Source of the DNA: Minisyncoccota bacterium
Lineage (GTDB): Bacteria; Patescibacteriota; Minisyncoccia; Phycocordibacterales; DATDWN01
Length of the DNA stretch: 64,000 bases
Direction: 5' to 3'
Assembly (NCBI GenBank): GCA_041674105.1
Contig: JBAYWK010000001.1
Location: forward strand, 82,190-146,189
Shown: positions 3,349 to 52,560 of the stretch, in pieces
Position numbering within the stretch: the first letter of the stretch is position 1
Layout of the letters: every line of letters starts with the position of its first letter
Translations under genes and position numbers: made by a program
Notes under the pieces: generated by a model
What the model was told of the DNA's origin: nothing
Database searches by the model: none
Seen by the model: only the letters and a program-made list of their open reading frames with translations

Positions 3349-4014
3349 TTACGGTTTAGATATTTCTATAATAATTTTATTAATATCTGGGAAATACTTT
3401 TCAAATATCTCTGATACTTTTTCTGAATTTTCCGGATCTCTCTGAATCCTCTTACTTTCAGGGAAAAATTTATCGATAATTAAATCCACCAACCTTTCCT
3501 TTACCCAATGTGTTATTTTATACTCTTTTATTAGAGGCTCAATGGTTAAATGTACAATCTCATGGGCTAGAGTAATAGTAAGTACTCTTTTTTGTTCAAT
3601 ATTAAGTTGAACATTATTTGGTAACCCATAACTACCCCCTGTTCCATATTTTGTAACACATACAAAATATTTATCTTGTAGTGGAAGATTTAGTGTTTTT
3701 AAACTTTCAAAAAATTTATCTTTTATTTCATCCCACTCTTTTATTATCAAATCCACTTCTTCTCTATATTTTTCTTGATCAAATTCAGCAGAAACTGCTT
3801 CTAAAATATCTTCCTTTTTTACCTTCTCATCTTTTTCTAATCTTTCTTGTATCAATTTAGGATACTTGGGCTTATAACCATTTTCCTTATACCAATGGTA
3901 TTTTTTAAGTGTACTAAAAACCCTTTCTTTTTCATCTTCTACAGAATAATCAAAAACAACCTCTATTTTTGGTTCAGCTTCTTTGTTATCTTGATTTTCT
4001 ATTAGCTTTTCCAT
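3349..4014 (-). CDS. Hypothetical protein with an HExxH zinc-metallopeptidase-like motif.
   Basis: The ORF is 221 aa and contains TITLAHEIVHLT. No wider family was recognised. Confidence 0.35.
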   Translation of the reverse strand: MEKLIENQDNKEAEPKIEVVFDYSVEDEKERVFSTLKKYHWYKENGYKPKYPKLIQERLEKDEKVKKEDILEAVSAEFDQEKYREEVDLIIKEWDEIKDKFFESLKTLNLPLQDKYFVCVTKYGTGGSYGLPNNVQLNIEQKRVLTITLAHEIVHLTIEPLIKEYKITHWVKERLVDLIIDKFFPESKRIQRDPENSEKVSEIFEKYFPDINKIIIEISKP

Positions 4015-42978: not shown

Positions 42979-43596
42979 TTAATGTAACCTGTCAACCTCC
43001 CAAACCCTGCCAAAAATACTCCATCGTTCTAATATTTCTTTTTTACTTAATTTCATAAAATATCTATTATCTTCAGTCATCCTTTCATAATTTAAATGAG
43101 GAACCTTGTGAGTATCAAAAACATACAGATTATCTTCGTCATATCCATACACAAACATCACGTGATCCAATAAGCCAAAAAATCCTAGGGATATGTCTAT
43201 TCCTGTAGCAGATCCATTTTCAATATTATGTTCAATTATTTTGATAGCATTATCGTAAGTCATCCTAGAAAACAATATGGATTCAAAAAAATCAAAAAAA
43301 TCATTTATCATGTGACTATTTATCTTCAGAACTAGATCATTTTCTTTTAAAAACCCAGGAAGCTTATAGAATTGTAACTGAGTCCACGCTAAAAATGCCG
43401 GCAAAGAAAAACCAAACGAATTAGATCTTTCTATTTCCACTATACTGCAATCTATAGGGTTAAATTTTCTAGGTAGATAGTAATTAAGAGCGTAATACAT
43501 AAAATCTCTACCGCATTTATTTTTAACAGTAGCACCATTGATTTTTTCTCTTTGGACAAAACCAGTACTATTTATTTCAACAGGTAAAGAAATCAT
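42979..43596 (-). CDS. Papain-fold (C39-like / BtrH-like) cysteine peptidase domain hypothetical protein.
   Basis: Cys (KCGRDFMYYALNYY), His (LDHVMFVYGYDED) and Asp are spaced as in Peptidase_C39-like domains. The assignment is tentative. Confidence 0.35.
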   Translation of the reverse strand: MISLPVEINSTGFVQREKINGATVKNKCGRDFMYYALNYYLPRKFNPIDCSIVEIERSNSFGFSLPAFLAWTQLQFYKLPGFLKENDLVLKINSHMINDFFDFFESILFSRMTYDNAIKIIEHNIENGSATGIDISLGFFGLLDHVMFVYGYDEDNLYVFDTHKVPHLNYERMTEDNRYFMKLSKKEILERWSIFGRVWEVDRLH

Positions 43597-43637
43597 TATT
43601 AAATTATATCAAAAACAGATTCTAACTAGTACGTTTT

Positions 43638-43657
43638 TGTGCGGGTAGGGAGAATCG
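43638..43657. repeat. 20-bp direct duplicate of the 3' end of tRNA-Gly (att-like core).
   Basis: tgtgcgggtagggagaatcg is identical to the 3' terminus of the tRNA-Gly genes at 43826 and 48155. It lies 168 bp from the intact tRNA-Gly(UCC). Confidence 0.75.
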
Positions 43658-43825
43658 GTCAGGAATAATTTTGATTCCGTCGAATCAAAATTTTCACGAC
43701 CCTGACTCGCGACCCATCGTGCTCGATGGGTACCCCGCTCCGTCTTTCGATTCTCTACGCAAAGCCATACTATGGCTTTGCTCTAACCGCATAAGCGAAA
43801 AGCGCCCTAAGGTGCCTTTCGTCTG

Positions 43826-43896
43826 TGCGGGTAGGGAGAATCGAACTCCCGTATACTGCTTGGAAGGCAGTCATTCTACCACTAAACTATACCCGC
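43826..43896 (-). tRNA. tRNA-Gly (anticodon UCC).
   Basis: A 71-nt cloverleaf GCGGGUAUAGUUUAGUGGUAGAAUGACUGCCUUCCAAGCAGUAUACGGGAGUUCGAUUCUCCCUACCCGCA has a 7-bp acceptor and the T-loop GUUCGAUUC. Confidence 0.85.
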
Positions 43897-43945
43897 AAAT
43901 TTAAAACATAGTTAATATATCAAAAAAAACCGTCCTCTGCAATTT

Positions 43946-44130
43946 AGAGCCTATCTCCAATCTCGCATCAGAATAAAATGCCAAAATTTTCAGGCAAAAA
44001 TCAAACTGGAAGCCGAAGTGTATTGATATACAATAAGGATGAAGTGAAGGTTTTTGACGGAAATTTTGCTATTTTAACTAATGAGCTATATTCTTAGCTC
44101 TTTTTTGTGTCGAGATTGGAGATAGGCTCT
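43946..44130. repeat. 20-bp perfect inverted repeat pair enclosing about 145 bp that contain a 39-codon ORF and a hairpin terminator.
   Basis: agagcctatctccaatctcg (43946-43965) pairs with cgagattggagataggctct (44111-44130). The inner ORF at 43978..44097 encodes MPKFSGKNQTGSRSVLIYNKDEVKVFDGNFAILTNELYS. The hairpin gagctatattcttagctc is followed by a T-run. Confidence 0.6.
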
Positions 44131-44150
44131 ATGATGATATAATACTAAAT

Positions 44151-45302
44151 ATGTTAACTAATCTTATAAAAATTAGTTTATTTTTTTCTCTAGCTATACT
44201 TGTATGGTTTATATATCCTAGAGAAGTAAATAAAAACCTACCTGTAGTAGGAGAAGAATTGAAGATAGAATTCCCCGAAGAAACCTTTGATACAGACACA
44301 GTTTTAGAAGAAAAAGTTAAAACTGAAAACCAAACAAAAGAAGAAAATAAAGCTAAACCTACTGTAGAAAAAATTGAAGTAGTGTCGAAAAAAACTTCGT
44401 CAGATAACCAAAATCCAGTAAACTCAGAACAACCAAAAAATACCAACTCAACAAAAGAGTCGGGAGATTTTGTAGAATTGAATGAGAAATCCAGAAAATC
44501 AATCGTAAATATCTTGTGTAAAACAAATGGAAATGACCTTTCTACTATTACAGGCACAGGAGTTATCATAGATCCTCGTGGAATAATCCTTACAAATGCT
44601 CATATAGGACAATACTTCCTTTTGAAAGATTTTAAATTCAAAAACTTTGTAGAATGTACTATTCGCACAGGAGAACCTGCTTATCCAAAATACGAAGCTG
44701 AGCTAGTATATATTTCTCCAGAATGGGTAGAGGCAAACAAATCAATACTAACGGAAGAAAATCCTAAAGGCACAGGCGAATATGATTTTGCTTTTCTTAG
44801 AATAACCAAGGCTATAGATGGAACCGTACTACCTTCATTTGATTATATAAAACCTGACACAAGAGAAATAATAGATGAAGGAGAACCTGTCTTACTAGCC
44901 TCCTACCCTGCCGGATTCCTTGGAAGTATTTCTGTTATCCAAGGACTATACATAACCAGTGCAGTCACAACTGTTCAAAAAATATTTACATTTAAAGAGA
45001 CAACTATTGATTTACTTTCAGTTGGAGGAACTGTTTTGTCACAAAAAGGATCTTCAGGTGGAGCCGTAATAGACCGATACGGTAAACTTATTGGTCTAAT
45101 TTCTACAAGTTCAGATGGAGACACCACAAGTGAAAGAGACCTACGAGCTATCACAATGACTCATATAAACAGAAGTTTAAAAGAGTCTTTTGGTGGTTTA
45201 AACTCTTTCCTTGGTCTAAATATGGAAACTACAGCAGACATTTTCAAAAAAACACTCTTCCCTTCCCTTTCACAACTTATAATAAATGAATTGAAAAAAT
45301 AA
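44151..45302 (+). CDS. Trypsin-like (S1/HtrA-like) secreted serine protease without PDZ domains.
   Basis: A signal anchor is followed by His (ILTNAHI), Asp (DFAFLRI) and Ser (GSSGGAV) catalytic motifs. Confidence 0.75.
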   Translation: MLTNLIKISLFFSLAILVWFIYPREVNKNLPVVGEELKIEFPEETFDTDTVLEEKVKTENQTKEENKAKPTVEKIEVVSKKTSSDNQNPVNSEQPKNTNSTKESGDFVELNEKSRKSIVNILCKTNGNDLSTITGTGVIIDPRGIILTNAHIGQYFLLKDFKFKNFVECTIRTGEPAYPKYEAELVYISPEWVEANKSILTEENPKGTGEYDFAFLRITKAIDGTVLPSFDYIKPDTREIIDEGEPVLLASYPAGFLGSISVIQGLYITSAVTTVQKIFTFKETTIDLLSVGGTVLSQKGSSGGAVIDRYGKLIGLISTSSDGDTTSERDLRAITMTHINRSLKESFGGLNSFLGLNMETTADIFKKTLFPSLSQLIINELKK

Positions 45303-45377
45303 TTAGACTTCTTTAAAAAATAGATAAAATTGTGCTAGTTAGAGAAATTTTTAACGACAGAGATATATGGTAATTGT

Positions 45378-45505
45378 GAAAAACTTAACAGTTTGGATGA
45401 AGTCCTAGGCGGATAAGAAAAATAATTTGAGCCTGCCTTGGATGCGCAGGCTCAAATTATTTTTTGAAATCCAACAACGGAATTCGCCAAACTGTTAAGT
45501 TTTTA
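45378..45505. repeat. Repeat family C, copy 1, a 127-nt element with an 18-bp terminal inverted repeat and an inner 12-bp palindrome.
   Basis: gaaaaacttaacagtttgg…ccaaactgttaagttttt. The inner palindrome is atttgagcctgc-cttggat-gcaggctcaaat. The 3' edge overlaps the stop codon of the minus-strand RNHCP gene. Confidence 0.8.
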
Positions 45506-45811
45506 TTTAAAATTTTTACCATTCTCAGAACTTATCTGAACTATCATCTGAAAATTATCCTCTTTAACAGCCTTATTTGGCTTCTCTAGACCACATTTAG
45601 TGCATTTGTGTATGATTGTGTACTCTTTACCTTTTTTCTCAATTCTGATGGGTTCCATCATACCAAAACAAACAGACTCTCTGTCCCCTGGGTCAATGTC
45701 TACATGTTTAGACCAAAGACAATTTGGACAATGGTTTGTATAACCTGTACCTAAAACCTCGGTTCCGCACTTCTCGCAAACAAAATTTTCTTTTGTACGT
45801 TTGAAAGTCAT
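45503..45811 (-). CDS. RNHCP-domain zinc-ribbon protein.
   Basis: CEKCGTEV…TNHCPNCLWSKHVD…CTKCG. Confidence 0.6.
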   Translation of the reverse strand: MTFKRTKENFVCEKCGTEVLGTGYTNHCPNCLWSKHVDIDPGDRESVCFGMMEPIRIEKKGKEYTIIHKCTKCGLEKPNKAVKEDNFQMIVQISSENGKNFK

Positions 45812-45839
45812 ACTAGTTTTTATATAAATATCAAAAATA

Positions 45840-46946
45840 TTATTCTTTTCTGCTCCACTTCATTTTATCAGAAGCCTTAAACATTTCCGAATCATTCTCA
45901 CCTTCTACAAGTTCATATATTTTAAAAGAATCTGAGTTTACTTCACTTATAATAGAATTATACTCTTCAGGGTCTATATATAGATTGTCCTCAGTGTCTA
46001 TGTATGGATTATAAATATCATCCAAGTATCTTTTCACATAATCTAAGTGGTTTACCCCATAAATAAAAGCTATTTTTCTGTGCCCTCCCATAGATAATTC
46101 TTGAATTGACCTAGCTAATTTTAAATCTCTAGCTCTCTCAGTCATCATACCTTTACGAAAATTAACATTTTCTTCTTCTACTTTTTCCATTGTTGTCTGT
46201 GGAGGAGATTCAGTCAATTTATCAGCTGATACAGCTACGGCAAGCCCTGTTACAGATAAAAACATTCCTTCCAAAAAAGATCTTCGGCTAATTGGTTCTT
46301 TAAAATCTTTAATGAACTTAGCTACTCCAGATAGAGTCAATGCTATAGACCCTGTATACAACCCTAATTTTTTTAAATTTGCTATTTTTTGATCATTTTC
46401 TTCTGCCATTTTAGAAAAGAAATAATCATCTTGTAATATACCTTCGGTATTCTTACTCCATCTTATATCAGCTGTTGCCATCTCCTTTCCATACTTAGCG
46501 GCCAAGAGTTCTACTTCATGATGAAAAACCCCCATATTAGAAACTCTTTCATATTTTAGATACATTTGTCTGAGTTGTTCTAGATTATAATTTTCATTAT
46601 ATTTTGATCTAATTTTTTTTAACTCTTCAATTTGTCCTTTACTATAAACACCTTGAGCTTCTGGAGCAAATTCATTTATGATGATATCACTATTTTTAAT
46701 AGATTCTTCTATTTTATCTCTAAAATAAAGAAATGTTTCTGGTACATGACTTACACCGATAGCCACAATTTCTGTTTCATTAAATTTCCAATTTTCAATT
46801 TTAAAACTAGCTTCAATTTCTTCTTGTGTGTATAGAGGATTTTCTTTAATTTCGTTATCAAACTCAATAGAATGTTGACTTACTTTTTCAAAGATATTTT
46901 CTTTGTTCTCATTACTATCATTAAATTGTTCAAATTTAATTTGCAT
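45840..46946 (-). CDS. TraB/PrgY/GumN (Tiki superfamily) family protein with central TM helices.
   Basis: IVAIGVSHVPETF and GGHRKIAFIYGVNHLDYV resemble the GTxH / GxxH motifs of the TraB family. Confidence 0.5.
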   Translation of the reverse strand: MQIKFEQFNDSNENKENIFEKVSQHSIEFDNEIKENPLYTQEEIEASFKIENWKFNETEIVAIGVSHVPETFLYFRDKIEESIKNSDIIINEFAPEAQGVYSKGQIEELKKIRSKYNENYNLEQLRQMYLKYERVSNMGVFHHEVELLAAKYGKEMATADIRWSKNTEGILQDDYFFSKMAEENDQKIANLKKLGLYTGSIALTLSGVAKFIKDFKEPISRRSFLEGMFLSVTGLAVAVSADKLTESPPQTTMEKVEEENVNFRKGMMTERARDLKLARSIQELSMGGHRKIAFIYGVNHLDYVKRYLDDIYNPYIDTEDNLYIDPEEYNSIISEVNSDSFKIYELVEGENDSEMFKASDKMKWSRKE

Positions 46947-47001
46947 GCTTATATTTTAGCAAATTCCTTCAATTGCGCATTATTTTCTTAATTTTCATCT
47001 T

Positions 47002-47050
47002 GTCGGGGCGCCGAGAATCGAACTCGGGCCACATCCCTTCGGGCCACAGA
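47002..47050 (-). repeat. Partial duplicate of the 3' half of tRNA-Pro (variable region, T-arm and acceptor 3' strand).
   Basis: On the minus strand the sequence is …GUGGCCCGAGUUCGAUUCUCGGCGCCCCGAC. It differs from the intact tRNA-Pro by 1-2 nt. Confidence 0.7.
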
Positions 47051-47084
47051 AACATAATATGTTTCTGGAATTATTTGAAACTAG

Positions 47085-47157
47085 GTCGGGGTGCCGAGAA
47101 TCGAACTCGGGCCGCATGTTCCCAAAACATGAATACTACCTCTATACTACACCCCGA
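47085..47157 (-). tRNA. tRNA-Pro (anticodon UGG).
   Basis: CGGGGUGUAGUAUAGAGGUAGUAUUCAUGUUUUGGGAACAUGCGGCCCGAGUUCGAUUCUCGGCACCCCGA. The anticodon loop is UUUGGGA. Confidence 0.85.
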
Positions 47158-47185
47158 CGCAATTTCAAATAATTCCCCAAAAATG

Positions 47186-47210
47186 CATACTACCTCTATA
47201 CTACACCCCG
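47186..47210 (-). repeat. Partial duplicate of the 5' half of tRNA-Pro (acceptor 5' strand, D-arm and anticodon 5' stem-loop).
   Basis: On the minus strand the sequence is CGGGGUGUAGUAUAGAGGUAGUAUGCAUUUUUGGGG…. Confidence 0.7.
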
Positions 47211-47253
47211 AATATAACAATTAGAAGTCTACCATAAATAATATAAATAACAA

Positions 47254-47664
47254 TTACAAGATAATATCTTCTAACATATCTATATCTAAAAGGTTTTTTT
47301 CTTTATCCAAATAGACAGTAATCACATCAAACTGCCAATCTGTTTCATCTGAAACATCTTTTTCTAGTAAATAAGACTGGATTATTCTACTCAGTCTTTG
47401 TAGTTTCCAAGGATGAATATTGTCTTCAGGCCTATATTCATCCTTATTATTCAAATACCCTATTTCACGGGAAACAGTTTTAACTTCAATAAAATGAATA
47501 ACCTCCCCTTTTTTGACAATAATATCTATCTCTCCCCATTTTTTATAATAGTTTCTTTCTATCACTTTGAAACCTTTGTCCTTTATAAATTTACAAGCAA
47601 GATCCTCTCCTTTTACACCTACAATCTGTCTATCTGTTGGATTTTTAATATCCTTGTTATACAT
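47254..47664 (-). CDS. YraN-family (UPF0102) PD-(D/E)xK endonuclease-like protein.
   Basis: …VGVKGEDLACKFIKDKGFKVIERNYY…GEIDIIVKKGEVIHFIEVKT…. Confidence 0.75.
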   Translation of the reverse strand: MYNKDIKNPTDRQIVGVKGEDLACKFIKDKGFKVIERNYYKKWGEIDIIVKKGEVIHFIEVKTVSREIGYLNNKDEYRPEDNIHPWKLQRLSRIIQSYLLEKDVSDETDWQFDVITVYLDKEKNLLDIDMLEDIIL

Positions 47665-47906
47665 GAAACTATTTGTTTAGGTTTAACTTACCCTAAAGTA
47701 TAGCAAATCAAGCCAGGAATTGGCCATTAAGTTTCATGTATAACACTTTAGAGTTTTCACGTGAAACACTTATGTATTTCATTAAAAAAGGACACTAAGA
47801 AAGGCTGTCTGTTTTTGATAAAGCTATATTCAAAGCCATATAATGTTTAATAGACTTAGCGCTTCTCTTATAAGTCTTAAAACTCAAGATCTTGTCCTTA
47901 ATACAC

Positions 47907-47927
47907 ATTTCCACAGGGTTATCCACA
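47907..47927 (+). promoter_or_regulatory. Tandem DnaA-box-like sites (TTTCCACA next to a perfect TTATCCACA) in a 450-bp AT-rich non-coding region.
   Basis: acacatttccacagggTTATCCACAtatatatgg. Other perfect TTATCCACA sites lie at 6904-6912, 50363-50371 and 62968-62976, all intergenic. Confidence 0.35.
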
Positions 47928-48154
47928 TATATATGGTAATATGTTGCATAATACTAGTTCTCGAGATTACGAGATTTGACTAAAACAAAGGTTTTTTTAA
48001 AGAGATTAGGAAATAAGAGATAAATTATAATATAAGATTATAAAGGACATTTGAGTAAGGAGAACCGAAGCTAAGATAATTTCCTCGACGTCTAAGGGAG
48101 AATGAGTCACAAAAGTATAGTCTTAAAATGATTCGCGTTTTAATCCTTATTTTG

Positions 48155-48225
48155 TGCGGGTAGGGAGAATCGAACTCCCGTCTCATCCTTGGCAAGGATG
48201 TGTTCTACCACTAAACCATACCCGC
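48155..48225 (-). tRNA. tRNA-Gly (anticodon GCC).
   Basis: GCGGGUAUGGUUUAGUGGUAGAACACAUCCUUGCCAAGGAUGAGACGGGAGUUCGAUUCUCCCUACCCGCA. Confidence 0.85.
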
Positions 48226-48412
48226 GAACTTGATTATTATACACGAGCAAAAAATAAAAACAAAATTGGAAGATCTTGTGGTCACAAGTAATTTTGGTTC
48301 CGTATAACCAAAATTCTTTCGACCCCACTTCGCCTGTTTTTCTGGTTAAAAACATGGCTCCGGCCGGCACAAGTATCAAAAAACATGGAGCAGTCCATAT
48401 TTTTCTGTCTTG

Positions 48413-48484
48413 TGCCCCCGCCAGGAATTGAACCCAGATCAACGGTTCCGAAGACCGCTACTTTATCCGTTAAGCTACGGGGGC
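48413..48484 (-). tRNA. tRNA-Arg (anticodon UCG).
   Basis: GCCCCCGUAGCUUAACGGAUAAAGUAGCGGUCUUCGGAACCGUUGAUCUGGGUUCAAUUCCUGGCGGGGGCA. Confidence 0.85.
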
Positions 48485-48569
48485 AATACTAATATCATAT
48501 ATGTTTTCAAACTGGTTTACTAGTAGTAGCTTTATAAAATATAGCTAAAATGATAGTATTATTTTTGAT

Positions 48570-50042
48570 ATGAATAAGAATTTCAACATACCAAAAGAGG
48601 TTTCATATGTAACAGAAGAGCTAGAAAAGGCTGGTTTTGAGGCTTTTCTGGTAGGTGGGTGTGTTAGAGACCTTATCTTAGGTAAAAAACCTAAAGACTG
48701 GGATGTTACAACAAACGCAACCCCCGAAGAAATTTCTCCGATATTTAAAGATACTTTTTATGAAAATGACTTTGGAACTGTTGGTATAGTGAATGAAGAT
48801 GTAGATGACCCTAGTCTAAAAGTTATAGAAGTAACTCCTTACAGGGTAGAATCAGGTTATTCAGATAATAGACATCCTGACAAAGTTAGTTTTAGCCAAA
48901 ATATAGAGGATGATCTACAAAGAAGGGACTTCACAATGAACGCTCTTGCATATTCTGTCCTTGATAAAAAACTTGTTGACCTTTATAAAGGACAGGATGA
49001 TATAAAGGACAAAATAATAAGAACGGTAGGGAAGCCGGAGGAAAGATTTAAAGAAGACGGCCTTAGAATACTCAGGGCTGTTAGATTTCAATCTGAGCTA
49101 GGATTTGAAATAGAAAAAGAAACAGAAAAAGCTATTCTAGAGAATTCTAATTTACTAAAGAACATATCTAAAGAGAGAATAGGGGAGGAATTTACAAAAA
49201 TTATTATGTCAAACTCTCCTATGCTAGGAATCTCTAAAATGAAGAGTTTGGGTATACTAGAGTATGTCGTACCTGAATTATTAGAATCTATTGGTGTAGA
49301 GCAAAATAAGGCCCATTCATACGATGTCTGGGAGCATCTACTTAGATCTGTTCAACATTCTGCCGATAAAAAATACCCTTTGGAAATAAGGTTGTCTGCC
49401 TTGTTTCATGATATATCCAAACCTCACAGTAGGAGATGGGGTAAGGAACAAAGCCAATGGACTTTCTACGGACATGAGGTCATTGGTTCACGTGTAACAA
49501 AAAAGATACTAGAAAGATTAAAATATCCAAAGAAAGTAATAGATAAAGTATCTAAGATGGTTAGATGGCATATGTTTTTCTCTGATACTGAGCAAATAAC
49601 CCTTTCTGCTGTGAGGAGAATGATTGTTAATGTCGGTAGGGAGAATATATGGGACCTGATGGATCTAAGGATATGTGACCGAATAGGAACAGGTAGACCC
49701 AAAGAAGACCCTTACAGATTGAGAAAATACCATTCTATGATAGAAGAAGCCCTTAGAGATCCTATATCTGTTGGAATGTTAAAAATAGATGGAAAAAGAA
49801 TAATGGATGTTACACATGTAACACCCGGACCTAAAATAGGGTATATGCTGCACGCTCTACTAGAAGAAGTTCTAGACGACCCAACAAAAAATACAGAGGA
49901 TTATCTTGAAAATAGAACACTGGAGCTTATAAATATGAGTGAAACTGATCTTAGAAAGCTTGGTGAGGAAGGTAAAAAGACCAGAGAAGAGTTGGATGAG
50001 GAGGAGATAAAGGAAATACGCAAGAAACACTGGGTTAAATAA
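48570..50042 (+). CDS. cca: CCA-adding enzyme / poly(A) polymerase-family tRNA nucleotidyltransferase with an HD domain.
   Basis: The head domain is FLVGGCVRDLILGKKPKDWDVTT and the HD motif is LFHDISKP. Confidence 0.85.
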   Translation: MNKNFNIPKEVSYVTEELEKAGFEAFLVGGCVRDLILGKKPKDWDVTTNATPEEISPIFKDTFYENDFGTVGIVNEDVDDPSLKVIEVTPYRVESGYSDNRHPDKVSFSQNIEDDLQRRDFTMNALAYSVLDKKLVDLYKGQDDIKDKIIRTVGKPEERFKEDGLRILRAVRFQSELGFEIEKETEKAILENSNLLKNISKERIGEEFTKIIMSNSPMLGISKMKSLGILEYVVPELLESIGVEQNKAHSYDVWEHLLRSVQHSADKKYPLEIRLSALFHDISKPHSRRWGKEQSQWTFYGHEVIGSRVTKKILERLKYPKKVIDKVSKMVRWHMFFSDTEQITLSAVRRMIVNVGRENIWDLMDLRICDRIGTGRPKEDPYRLRKYHSMIEEALRDPISVGMLKIDGKRIMDVTHVTPGPKIGYMLHALLEEVLDDPTKNTEDYLENRTLELINMSETDLRKLGEEGKKTREELDEEEIKEIRKKHWVK

Positions 50043-51251: not shown

Positions 51252-52184
51252 TTATTCTCCCTTACTATGAAACTTTTTATGAATATCCTTTAAATGCTTA
51301 TCTGTAACATGAGTGTATATCTGTGTTGTTCCAATATTAGCATGACCCAAAAGGGCTTGGACGGAGCGGAGGTCTGCGCCGTTGGATAAAAGGTCTGTGG
51401 CAAAAAGATGTCGCATCATATGGGGAGTAACTTTTTTTGATATTCCAGCCTTTATTGCCAATTGTTTTACTATTCTTTCTACTGATCTCTTTGTCAAACC
51501 CATATCTTCTCCCTTTCTAGAAATCTTTTTTGGAGAATTTAGAGAAACTTTTATAAATAAAGCATCGTCCATATCTTTTCTTTTTGATAAATAATCTTTT
51601 AGGACTCTTTTTGCTTTGTCAGAAATGAAAACAACACGAACCTTTCCACCTTTTCCACGAATAGATATTTCATCGGAGTGAAGATCTATATCTCTAGGTA
51701 AGGCACACAGCTCAGAGACACGAAGTCCTGTTGAAAAAAGAAGCTCCAGTATAGCTCTATCTCTGAAATTCTTTAAATCATTTCCAGAAGGAGAAGAGAG
51801 TAGCCTTTTGAGCTCTGTATCGGTTATCAAATCCAAGGATCTTTCGGAGACTTTTGCCAGCTCAATCCTCTCGGCTGGTAAAGTTTTGACTTCCTGCCTA
51901 GCCATATATTTTAGAAACGCTCTGAGAGCTATCAAATAATAGTTTTGAGTCTTTCTGCTGAGTGTTTCATTTAGTTTTCCTAAATTTTTTAAAGGCTGTC
52001 TGTTTAGCCAAAGACGAAACTCTCTGACGGAGGTATCAGTGATATCAGAAGGGGAGTCTTTCTTTAAGTAATCCAGGAAACGAGTCAAATATCTATCGTA
52101 GTTTTCAACAGTTTTAACAGAACGACCTCTTTCTATTTCTATATATTCGAGAAATTGTTGTTTTAATTGTTTAAGAGAAGCCAT
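51252..52184 (-). CDS. Tyrosine recombinase XerC/XerD-like.
   Basis: The C-terminal catalytic motifs are …HMMRHLFATDLLSNGADLRSVQALLGHANIGTTQIYTHV. The start was trimmed to the MASLKQ Met. Confidence 0.85.
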   Translation of the reverse strand: MASLKQLKQQFLEYIEIERGRSVKTVENYDRYLTRFLDYLKKDSPSDITDTSVREFRLWLNRQPLKNLGKLNETLSRKTQNYYLIALRAFLKYMARQEVKTLPAERIELAKVSERSLDLITDTELKRLLSSPSGNDLKNFRDRAILELLFSTGLRVSELCALPRDIDLHSDEISIRGKGGKVRVVFISDKAKRVLKDYLSKRKDMDDALFIKVSLNSPKKISRKGEDMGLTKRSVERIVKQLAIKAGISKKVTPHMMRHLFATDLLSNGADLRSVQALLGHANIGTTQIYTHVTDKHLKDIHKKFHSKGE

Positions 52185-52293
52185 ATTACTAAAAGTATAC
52201 CACAAAACCGTGTCGCACAATATTTTTGATCTCAAAAGAAGCTTTTTTAATAGATATTGCAAAAAATAGTCATTTATGCTATTCTCTACAGAC

Positions 52294-52560
52294 ATGCTTG
52301 CAAAAACAAAGAAATCAAGAATAATCAAGGAAGTACAGGTTCATGACACCGATACTGGCTCTCCTGAGGTTCAAATAGCTATTCTAAATAAGCGCATAGA
52401 CGAGCTTGCTTCTCATTTAAAGAAAAATAACAAAGATAACCACTCAAGAAGAGGTTTACTCCAAATGGTGGCTGATAGAAAGACTCATATGAAGTATCTA
52501 GAAAAGAAAAATCCAAAAAGATACAGTGCTCTTGTAAAAAAGCTAGGTTTGAAGAAATAG
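52294..52560 (+). CDS. rpsO: 30S ribosomal protein S15.
   Basis: MLAKTKKSRIIKEVQVHDTDTGSPEVQIAILNKRIDELASHLKKN…. Confidence 0.9.
   Translation: MLAKTKKSRIIKEVQVHDTDTGSPEVQIAILNKRIDELASHLKKNNKDNHSRRGLLQMVADRKTHMKYLEKKNPKRYSALVKKLGLKK

Follow-up and report, generated by a model that had tools for sequence, protein, structure and literature searches.

The tRNA-Pro locus at 46947-47253 of the 64-kb stretch of DNA analysed here (the window), which comes from a metagenome-assembled genome of Candidatus Paceibacterota (Candidate Phyla Radiation, CPR; Patescibacteria), is best read as one working tRNA-Pro(UGG) gene with a dead half of a split sister copy on either side, in a locus that is polymorphic and recombining. 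We put the probability of this reading at roughly three in four. The locus is the intergenic gap between a YraN-family gene and a gene for a 368-aa TraB/GumN-like protein. Judging by sequence comparison, the outer 5' and 3' halves within it are most likely dead remnants. Among relatives the outer tRNA was found neither conserved nor accompanied by compensatory changes in its stems, both halves being present in 2 of 13 ingroup loci. The outer halves thus appear dispensable, because relatives lose or mutate either half freely and the inner tRNA never changes.

Along the coding (minus) strand the locus runs 5' half, spacer s1, inner tRNA, spacer s2, hairpin, partial repeat and 3' half (Table 1). 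The original prediction, made from the sequence alone, had described an intact tRNA-Pro(UGG) on the minus strand between two spacers and two tRNA halves; all of these elements are present, well above chance expectation, and the locus is as non-standard as was then proposed, with halves from which a cloverleaf can be built. The boundaries required adjustment. The 5' half keeps its start at 47210 and now ends at 47174, and the segment first assigned to the 3' half (47050-47002) extends over the partial repeat and into the end of the hairpin. The inner tRNA is separated from the outer halves by 17 nt on the 5' side and 50 nt on the 3' side. The outer 5' half corresponds to standard positions 1-38 with the anticodon GGG, both by sequence and by ARAGORN in intron mode; compared with the inner tRNA, its nt 1-25 are identical and differences fall at 26 (G), 30 (T) and 34 (G). 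The sequence TGTGGCCCGA occurs twice, at 47048-47039 and at 47033-47024, where the 3' half starts, and from its sequence the 11-nt partial repeat looks like rearrangement debris. An assembly artefact is ruled out by an independent Logan assembly (L025, SRR6484325) that reproduces the locus base for base, and by the same architecture in three loci from relatives (L008, L018 and L020).

Syntenic loci were gathered through homologues of the two flanking proteins together with two pattern scans, giving 13 ingroup loci, in 12 of which the sequence reaches the position of the 3' half. Nucleotide identity of the YraN gene sets three clades. Clade A contains the window, L001-L003 (87.6%) and L013 (84.8%); clade B is a species-level group of six loci that share 95-99.5% with one another and ~76% with the window; and clade C (L011, L014 and L015) is 82-83% identical to clade B. 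An outgroup (L021-L024), at 64% amino-acid identity, carries its one tRNA-Pro(UGG) on the opposite strand and with a different sequence. Eleven ingroup loci hold a complete copy of the inner tRNA (L001-L003, L008, L011, L013, L014 and L016-L019), 100% identical throughout, and the parts of it present in L015 and L020 are identical as well.

The outer halves behave quite differently from locus to locus. The alpha-full allele, with both halves, is confined to the window and L008 among the 13 ingroup loci. In L008 the 3' half has changes at positions 44, 47, 67 and 72, the last change (A72) creating a C1·A72 mismatch and removing G72, and its partial repeat has diverged to GTGACCCTAATG. L018 is an alpha allele without the 3' half: relative to L008 it carries a 674-bp deletion that starts 3 nt past the hairpin (after GTG), and its 5' half has U33 changed to G. 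L020 is also alpha, its contig ending inside the inner tRNA. In beta alleles the 5' half leads into a variant s1 (…GAAAACTAGGT); the tRNA comes next, then a variant form of s2 (CCTAGAGTTTAAATA…), and the hairpin and 3' half are absent. The 5' half of these alleles ranges from one with C1 to T alone (L017), through 6-7 substitutions that include an uncompensated C11·A24 (L016 and L019), to heavy decay (L001-L003). Simple alleles with a single tRNA-Pro(UGG) occur in L013 of clade A and in L011, L014 and L015 of clade C. Overall, the 3' half is missing in 10 of the 12 loci whose sequence reaches it, and a 5' half without a 3' half is found in seven loci, nearly intact to heavily decayed; where its partner is absent the 5' half persists, and decays there. 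Allele types are mixed within clades, with alpha-full, beta and simple alleles together in clade A, and alpha-full, alpha without the 3' half, and beta together in clade B.

Table 1 Features of the tRNA-Pro locus and its surroundings. Positions are those of the window unless a locus label is given.
Feature	Position	Strand	Remarks
YraN-family gene	47254-47664	minus	
Promoter-like block (TTGTTA, 16 nt, TAGACT)	47226-47253	minus	Begins directly after the YraN stop codon
Outer 5' half, tRNA-Pro	47174-47210	minus	Acceptor strand, D-arm, 5' strand of the anticodon stem, loop UUGGGGA
Inverted repeat, left arm	47160-47176	minus	GGAATTATTTGAAATTG (also given as GGAAUUAUUUGAAAUUG)
Spacer s1	47157-47173	minus	ATTATTTGAAATTGCGT, 17 nt
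Inner tRNA-Pro(UGG), intact	47086-47156	minus	ARAGORN (47084-47156); Rfam RF00005, 61.2 bits
Spacer s2	47067-47085	minus	CCTAGTTTCAAATAATTCC
Inverted repeat, right arm	47067-47083	minus	TAGTTTCAAATAATTCC (also given as UAGUUUCAAAUAAUUCC)
Perfect 8-bp hairpin	47048-47066	minus	AGAAACAT-ATT-ATGTTTCT; 9 bp with the flanking C/G pair
Partial repeat, 11 nt	47037-47047	minus	GTGGCCCGAAG, a copy of the start of the 3' half
Outer 3' half	47003-47036	minus	3' strand of the anticodon stem (GGATG), variable region, T-arm, 3' acceptor strand, A73
Remnant of a metallo-beta-lactamase (MBL)-fold gene, first 18 nt	46981-46998	minus	ATGAAAATTAAGAAAATA; from alignment and gene calls
368-aa TraB/GumN-like gene	45840-46946	minus	
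Nested inverted repeat	45303-45510		AAAAACTTAACAGTTTGG ... CCAAACTGTTAAGTTTTT, enclosing GAGCCTGC...GCAGGCTC
Long hairpin, ~130 nt	17909-18038		Copies at L008 2974-3179, L018 1583-1634 and L013 2037-2065

The two arms of the inverted repeat (47176-47160 and 47083-47067) pair over 17 bp. The spacers had been described as containing exactly complementary sequences; 14 of the pairs are exact, the others being one further A-U and two G-U. When s1 pairs with s2, the inner tRNA's acceptor stem continues as a longer helix, which totals ~26 bp and holds one C·C mismatch. The leader-trailer duplex reaches -19.4 kcal/mol, compared with -6.7 +/- 2.5 kcal/mol for shuffled trailers (0 of 500 as good), and none of the three remaining tRNAs in the window has pairing of this kind. 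The helix and hairpin might be a selected processing structure, an RNase III-cut stalk that is kept because it governs how tRNA-Pro(UGG) matures or how stable it is, with the tRNA halves incidental. Such a role is compatible with dead outer halves and adds selection on the spacers. The strength of the pairing and its restriction to a single tRNA of the window speak in its favour, as does the retention of pairing in both alpha (26 bp, one mismatch) and beta (13 + 8 bp) alleles. In clade B, moreover, conservation is higher over the last ~30 nt of the leader than in the stretch of the 5' half that covers the acceptor and D-arm. We nonetheless consider selection of this kind unlikely. L011, L013 and L014 have the identical tRNA without a helix, and the stalk is evidently not needed, because the first two of these do without it. 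The arms decay independently and differently by allele, in the proximal part of s1 in alpha and in the distal part of s2 in beta, with no compensating change. Leader pairing up to position -1 also hinders rather than helps RNase P. Direct reading of the sequences indicates that s1 of beta joined to s2 of alpha would give a near-perfect 21-nt palindrome. The arms are eroded in different alleles and would be complementary if combined; the repeat therefore appears to have been perfect once and to be decaying now.

The central part of the nested allele probably has a history of its own. The window and L008 share 100% identity over 170 nt, from the 5' half through the hairpin as far as TTTCTGTG, which comprises 54/54 positions in the 5' half and s1, the whole inner tRNA, and s2 with the hairpin. 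Identity drops to 36/46 right after this block, and the 46 nt just upstream of it hold three substitutions and one indel. Elsewhere the two sequences are 76-84% identical in flanking genes and 90-94% identical in the best-conserved other tRNA regions. For the 97 bases outside the inner tRNA to be all unchanged, the probability lies between 3e-11 and 4e-3 according to the background rate assumed. The identity is best explained if the clades recently exchanged the core of the allele through homologous recombination. Selection on the precursor would explain the identity poorly, because the 5' half tolerates mutations within clade B. The 3' junction region has diverged at the background rate, and the nested structure is therefore likely to be old in both lineages, with only the core exchanged. 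Between the window and L008 the 3' half shows 4 differences in 34 nt and the adjacent repeat 3 in 12, a difference that is not significant (Fisher p = 0.36).

A shared core of this kind could also be the mark of a mobile cassette. Under that proposal s1, the tRNA, s2 and the hairpin make up a small selfish element that inserts into the anticodon arm of tRNA-Pro and is tolerated for the replacement tRNA it supplies; it would spread either actively, through the trans action of a transposase or homing enzyme, or passively, by DNA uptake and recombination through the halves. The identical block links the window in clade A with L008 and L020 in clade B, where YraN identity is 76% and surrounding aligned regions are at 78-84%, and mutations tolerated by the 5' half in clade B mean that constraint does not account for it. 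A cassette would likewise fit the patchy distribution over the YraN tree, the clean insertion with terminal inverted repeats, and the hypervariable gene slot downstream. We still judge it quite unlikely. Ordinary homologous recombination suffices to explain the block, with the 3' junction diverged at the background rate. The locus lacks a target-site duplication, and it encodes neither a transposase nor a homing endonuclease or integrase. No other close copy of the repeat arm exists in the window, where the nearest matches are two unrelated sites with three mismatches. A scan of 185,579 GTDB species representatives with a tRNA-derived 26-mer returned a single further genome (L008), at the same locus and with the same repeat arms, and a scan of viral contigs gave no match.

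Established classes of mobile or integrated element were rejected on similar grounds. A miniature inverted-repeat transposable element would account for the 17-bp terminal inverted repeats but not for the missing target-site duplication, the arm flanks (...TTTTTGG/GGAATT... and ...AATTCC/AGAAAC) showing no direct repeat, nor for the want of another close copy in the window. Duplication of an integrase att site does not fit the 50 ORF-free nt between the inner tRNA and the 3' half, nor the fact that the 5' half is duplicated too; the nearest tyrosine recombinase open reading frame (ORF; 51252-52328) is 4 kb off, beyond other genes. An IS200/IS605-type element could be suspected from the hairpin, which lies 11-12 nt away from the right junction, but the left end has no matching hairpin and TnpA is missing.

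The outer halves can be assembled into a tidy tRNA. Run with its intron option, as the original prediction had proposed, ARAGORN calls a 72-nt tRNA-Pro(GGG) from them, with a 137-nt intervening sequence, and the halves joined in silico are also called tRNA-Pro(GGG). As reconstructed, the junction would read ...UUGGGGA(A) + (G)GAUGUGGCCC, with ends at 47174 or 47173 and at 47036 or 47035. The break lies after nt 38 (ARAGORN) or, equally well, between nt 39 and 40, and the insertion is clean at either placement, with zero tRNA nucleotides lost or duplicated.

Several of these and related observations weigh against our view that the halves are dead. The halves of the window are flawless. Their acceptor strands are complementary at 7/7 pairs, with one U6-G67 wobble just as had been predicted, and they retain U33 and G37 together with G35, G36, G72 and A73, which are determinants for prolyl-tRNA synthetase (ProRS), G72 being one for the bacterial enzyme. 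The three stem differences from the inner copy all keep the pairing (U30-G40 for G30-C40; U6-G67 for U6-A67). A tRNA with a GGG anticodon would be useful, CCU and CCC making up 51% of the proline codons of the window. Our view of the tRNA complement takes in 64 kb of genome, which bears on whether another tRNA-Pro(GGG) exists. Identity over 170 nt amid a background of 76-84% is not what a purely neutral scar predicts, and the 3' half has stayed compatible with a cloverleaf in two lineages whose neighbouring sequence has diverged by ~22%. The counts over all long open frames of the window are 252 CCU (the commonest), 232 CCA, 41 CCG and 36 CCC, and for half of the proline codons the cell thus needs a tRNA with a GGG anticodon or a UGG tRNA that reads all four codons. 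On the sequence comparison, the GGG anticodon most likely arose by drift once the copy was dead, because L001 has TGG at this position in its decayed clade-A remnant.

A functional outer tRNA was the preferred suggestion of the original prediction, in which pairing within a single transcript would unite the halves, in the manner of a permuted or intron-containing tRNA. Spelled out, RNase P and a 3' nuclease would release the inner tRNA, and the halves, clamped by the 17-bp helix, would be trimmed and ligated, for example by an RtcB-type ligase, into tRNA-Pro(GGG), giving a bacterial analogue of the Nanoarchaeum split tRNAs. The clean insertion, the intact joined product with its U33, G37 and presumed ProRS determinants, the preserved stem pairing and the commonness of CCU all agree with such a pathway. 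So does the fold of the whole 221-nt region (z = -5.2), which pairs the outer acceptor strands and the spacers. We regard it as highly improbable even so. A bulge-helix-bulge cannot be drawn, and 30 nt including the hairpin lie between the 3' junction and the spacer helix. The junction falls after nt 38 or 39, not at 37/38 or within the loop. Of the two loci among 13 that have both halves, one carries the C1·A72 mismatch, and inside a single species-level clade L018 has lost the 3' half by deletion, L016, L017 and L019 have none, and the 5' half decays. The spacer helix shows no compensatory evolution, and we know of no bacterial enzyme that cuts at such junctions. A weaker version of this proposal has a novel self-complementing insertion disrupt a tRNA-Pro, supply the replacement and spread from species to species by recombination through the halves.

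The known routes by which a transcript could be spliced find no support in the sequence. A cmscan of 43000-50000 at E <= 10 gave zero group I intron matches, reporting the tRNA and sub-threshold chance matches only. A group I intron is further rejected by the length of 137 nt, by a junction after nt 38 or 39, outside the anticodon loop, and by an insert more than half of which is tRNA. In a search for a bulge-helix-bulge with two 3-nt bulges and a 4-bp helix, the intron start AUUAUUUG had no 4-nt complement near the end GUGGCCCGAAG. This and the bacterial host argue against an archaeal-type intron. The neighbouring genes are bacterial in kind, with a class II CCA-adding enzyme, YraN and a bacterial-type tRNA-Pro with C1-G72. 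The G+C content of the window is ~33%. Nor is the tRNA circularly permuted, since the 5' half precedes the 3' half on the coding strand. With no group I match, no bulge-helix-bulge and halves lost in relatives, we do not retain the idea that the halves are joined.

As to origin, the geometry favours a single insertion of an inverted-repeat-flanked tRNA copy into a resident copy between nt 39 and 40, because the halves are exactly complementary and abut the flanks of the simple-allele gene; in the alignment, the flanks on both sides of the tRNA in simple alleles are those that border the outer halves in nested alleles. A 137-nt segment, with the intact tRNA between inverted-repeat spacers, would have split the sister copy at that point. 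The first four bases of the left arm, GGAA, are nt 36-39 of the outer 5' half, and finding this GGAA in the anticodon loop as well as in the arm hints at a microhomology-mediated join. Template switching or capture of a foreign fragment may lie behind the perfect hairpin and the once-perfect palindrome.

The original prediction had offered, as its alternative, a duplication and inversion scar of a second tRNA-Pro. The scar of a second copy is close to what the evidence indicates, and an inversion is not needed. The comparison with relatives that it recommended does find the outer halves lost or decayed; at the outer flanks, however, relatives have a single tRNA-Pro, not the tandem pair that it had envisaged, and no tandem tRNA-Pro array exists in any relative examined. 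A three-copy tandem array with hairpin spacers, reduced by two deletions, was rejected because the deletions must meet at exactly nt 39/40 by chance. Collapse of a tandem array would explain the complementary spacers and the shared GGAA, and we keep it as a minor possibility. Simple tandem duplication was also rejected: a 54-nt repeat needs s1 to equal tRNA nt 38-54 (ACATGCGGCCCGAGTTC), but s1 reads ATTATTTGAAATTGCGT.

Four allele types (nested, nested without the 3' half, 5' half only, and plain single) occur side by side within species and among close relatives, and they appear to interconvert. A nested allele could become simple by deletion between direct repeats, which are available on the 5' side (25 nt identical, 34/37 overall) and on the 3' side (~30 nt). 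In the other direction, a simple allele could acquire the nested form from a donor by homologous recombination, for which the outer halves and the conserved flanks would be the homology arms.

Expression of the inner tRNA would probably begin at a conserved block upstream of the outer 5' half. This promoter-like block matches 8/12 consensus positions, where the threshold of the scanner is 9. It is conserved in all syntenic loci and also in the outgroup (L021-L024), where it is inverted together with the tRNA, and from its sequence is presumed to be the promoter of the whole tRNA-Pro transcript. The 17-nt s1 is short and a promoter scan found no promoter-like site in it; the inner tRNA is therefore presumably read through the 5' half from the upstream block. 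The 5' half and s1 would then form a 5' leader of ~55-65 nt, and s2, the hairpin and the 3' half would form the trailer. The ~26-bp helix would have to be opened or cut before RNase P and 3' trimming could free the tRNA. By analogy with rRNA processing stalks, RNase III would be the obvious candidate for cutting it. On this scheme the outer halves are never joined.

The locus has some practical consequences. Intron-aware tRNA finders would call from it a tidy and probably false tRNA-Pro(GGG), and thereby inflate CPR tRNA complements and completeness. It also offers a small natural case of allele turnover in a tRNA gene, in which nested, half-deleted and restored forms coexist in one population, and the allele core shared at a background of 76-84% bears on recombination across species in Patescibacteria. 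Should the outer tRNA mature after all, it would be the first bacterial split or protein-spliced tRNA, and its pathway would amount to protein-dependent tRNA splicing in a bacterium with a tRNA serving as the 'intron'; the comparative data make this unlikely.

Around the locus, the slot between the tRNA-Pro and a conserved RNHCP-domain gene is hypervariable among close relatives. It holds the TraB/GumN-like gene in the window and L001, an MBL-fold gene in L008, L011 and L014, an abhydrolase gene in L016, L017 and L019, and nothing in L018; the slot of L013 has a truncated N-terminal abhydrolase remnant and no called gene. The MBL-fold gene is intact after the tRNA locus in the three loci that have it, and its 18-nt remnant marks the outer downstream flank in the window. 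Distant homologues of the downstream 368-aa protein in L004-L007 are not syntenic with a tRNA-Pro. The pattern hits L009, L010 and L012 were discarded as chance matches inside a Bacteroidota protein-coding gene. Within the locus itself, an 83-aa ORF on the plus strand (46973-47224) is mere antisense of the tRNA copies and not a gene, a 35.9-bit Rfam match to SpF41 (threshold 52) that overlaps the tRNA is sub-threshold and was disregarded, and a terminator-like match at 47047-47067 on the plus strand has no gene upstream.

Three further structured stretches were seen in the window or in relatives. A near-perfect long hairpin of ~130 nt (-46 kcal/mol) is 84-90% conserved between the window and L008. 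It adjoins the RNHCP gene in L008, L018 and L013, and the copy in the window lies ~27 kb from that gene. It matches no Rfam family at threshold, the sub-threshold hit to mir-5615 (23.9 bits vs 82) being presumably due to chance, and it may be a relocating palindromic element or a small RNA. In L021-L024, at ~3430-3760, a G+C-rich structured stretch of ~150 nt, beginning AACCGCCAGCACGACTTATCGTGACTGGCGGTT, lies from the tRNA promoter region to the RNHCP gene and gave no Rfam match at gathering thresholds. The long nested inverted repeat at 45303-45510 sits between the convergent trypsin-like and RNHCP genes of the window, differs from the sequence of L008 at the same position, and is probably a bidirectional terminator.

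Comparison with known systems places the tRNA-Pro locus nearest to tRNA remnants. Bacterial tRNA introns are self-splicing and almost all of group I; the 333 surveyed are 184-894 nt long and always lie within the anticodon loop, and those of Patescibacteria belong to subgroup IA, often at position 35/36 (PMC13011429). Our locus resembles them as a clean insert in the anticodon arm of a Patescibacteria tRNA, without target duplication and with intron-less alleles in relatives. It differs in its insert of 137 nt, shorter than all 333 surveyed (PMC13011429), in the lack of a covariance-model match, and in its junction after nt 38 or 39. With the split tRNAs of Nanoarchaeum equitans and Caldivirga, and with archaeal bulge-helix-bulge introns, it has in common a 5' half with sequence complementary to the 3'-half leader right behind it, which would let the halves come together via an intervening helix. 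Here, in contrast, the host is bacterial, the halves lie 137 nt apart on one strand and not at separate loci, no bulge-helix-bulge is present, and the arrangement is not conserved within one species-level clade. RNase III-cut rRNA processing stalks offer another parallel, a helix of flanking sequence that encloses the mature RNA in the primary transcript. The helix described here differs from them in enclosing a single tRNA, in being absent from relatives with an identical tRNA, and in showing no covariation, and its cleavage by RNase III is inferred. Fragments and pseudo-tRNA remnants, including those at integration hot spots, are likewise partial copies beside an intact gene with variable neighbours, and they too decay or are deleted in relatives as the intact gene stays invariant. 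Unlike them, our locus has both a 5' and a 3' fragment that are exact complementary parts (nt 1-39 and 40-73), an intact copy between the fragments, a 17-21-nt inverted repeat, and no integrated element or integrase. The nested arrangement is best seen as a variant of tRNA remnants at a variable tRNA locus.

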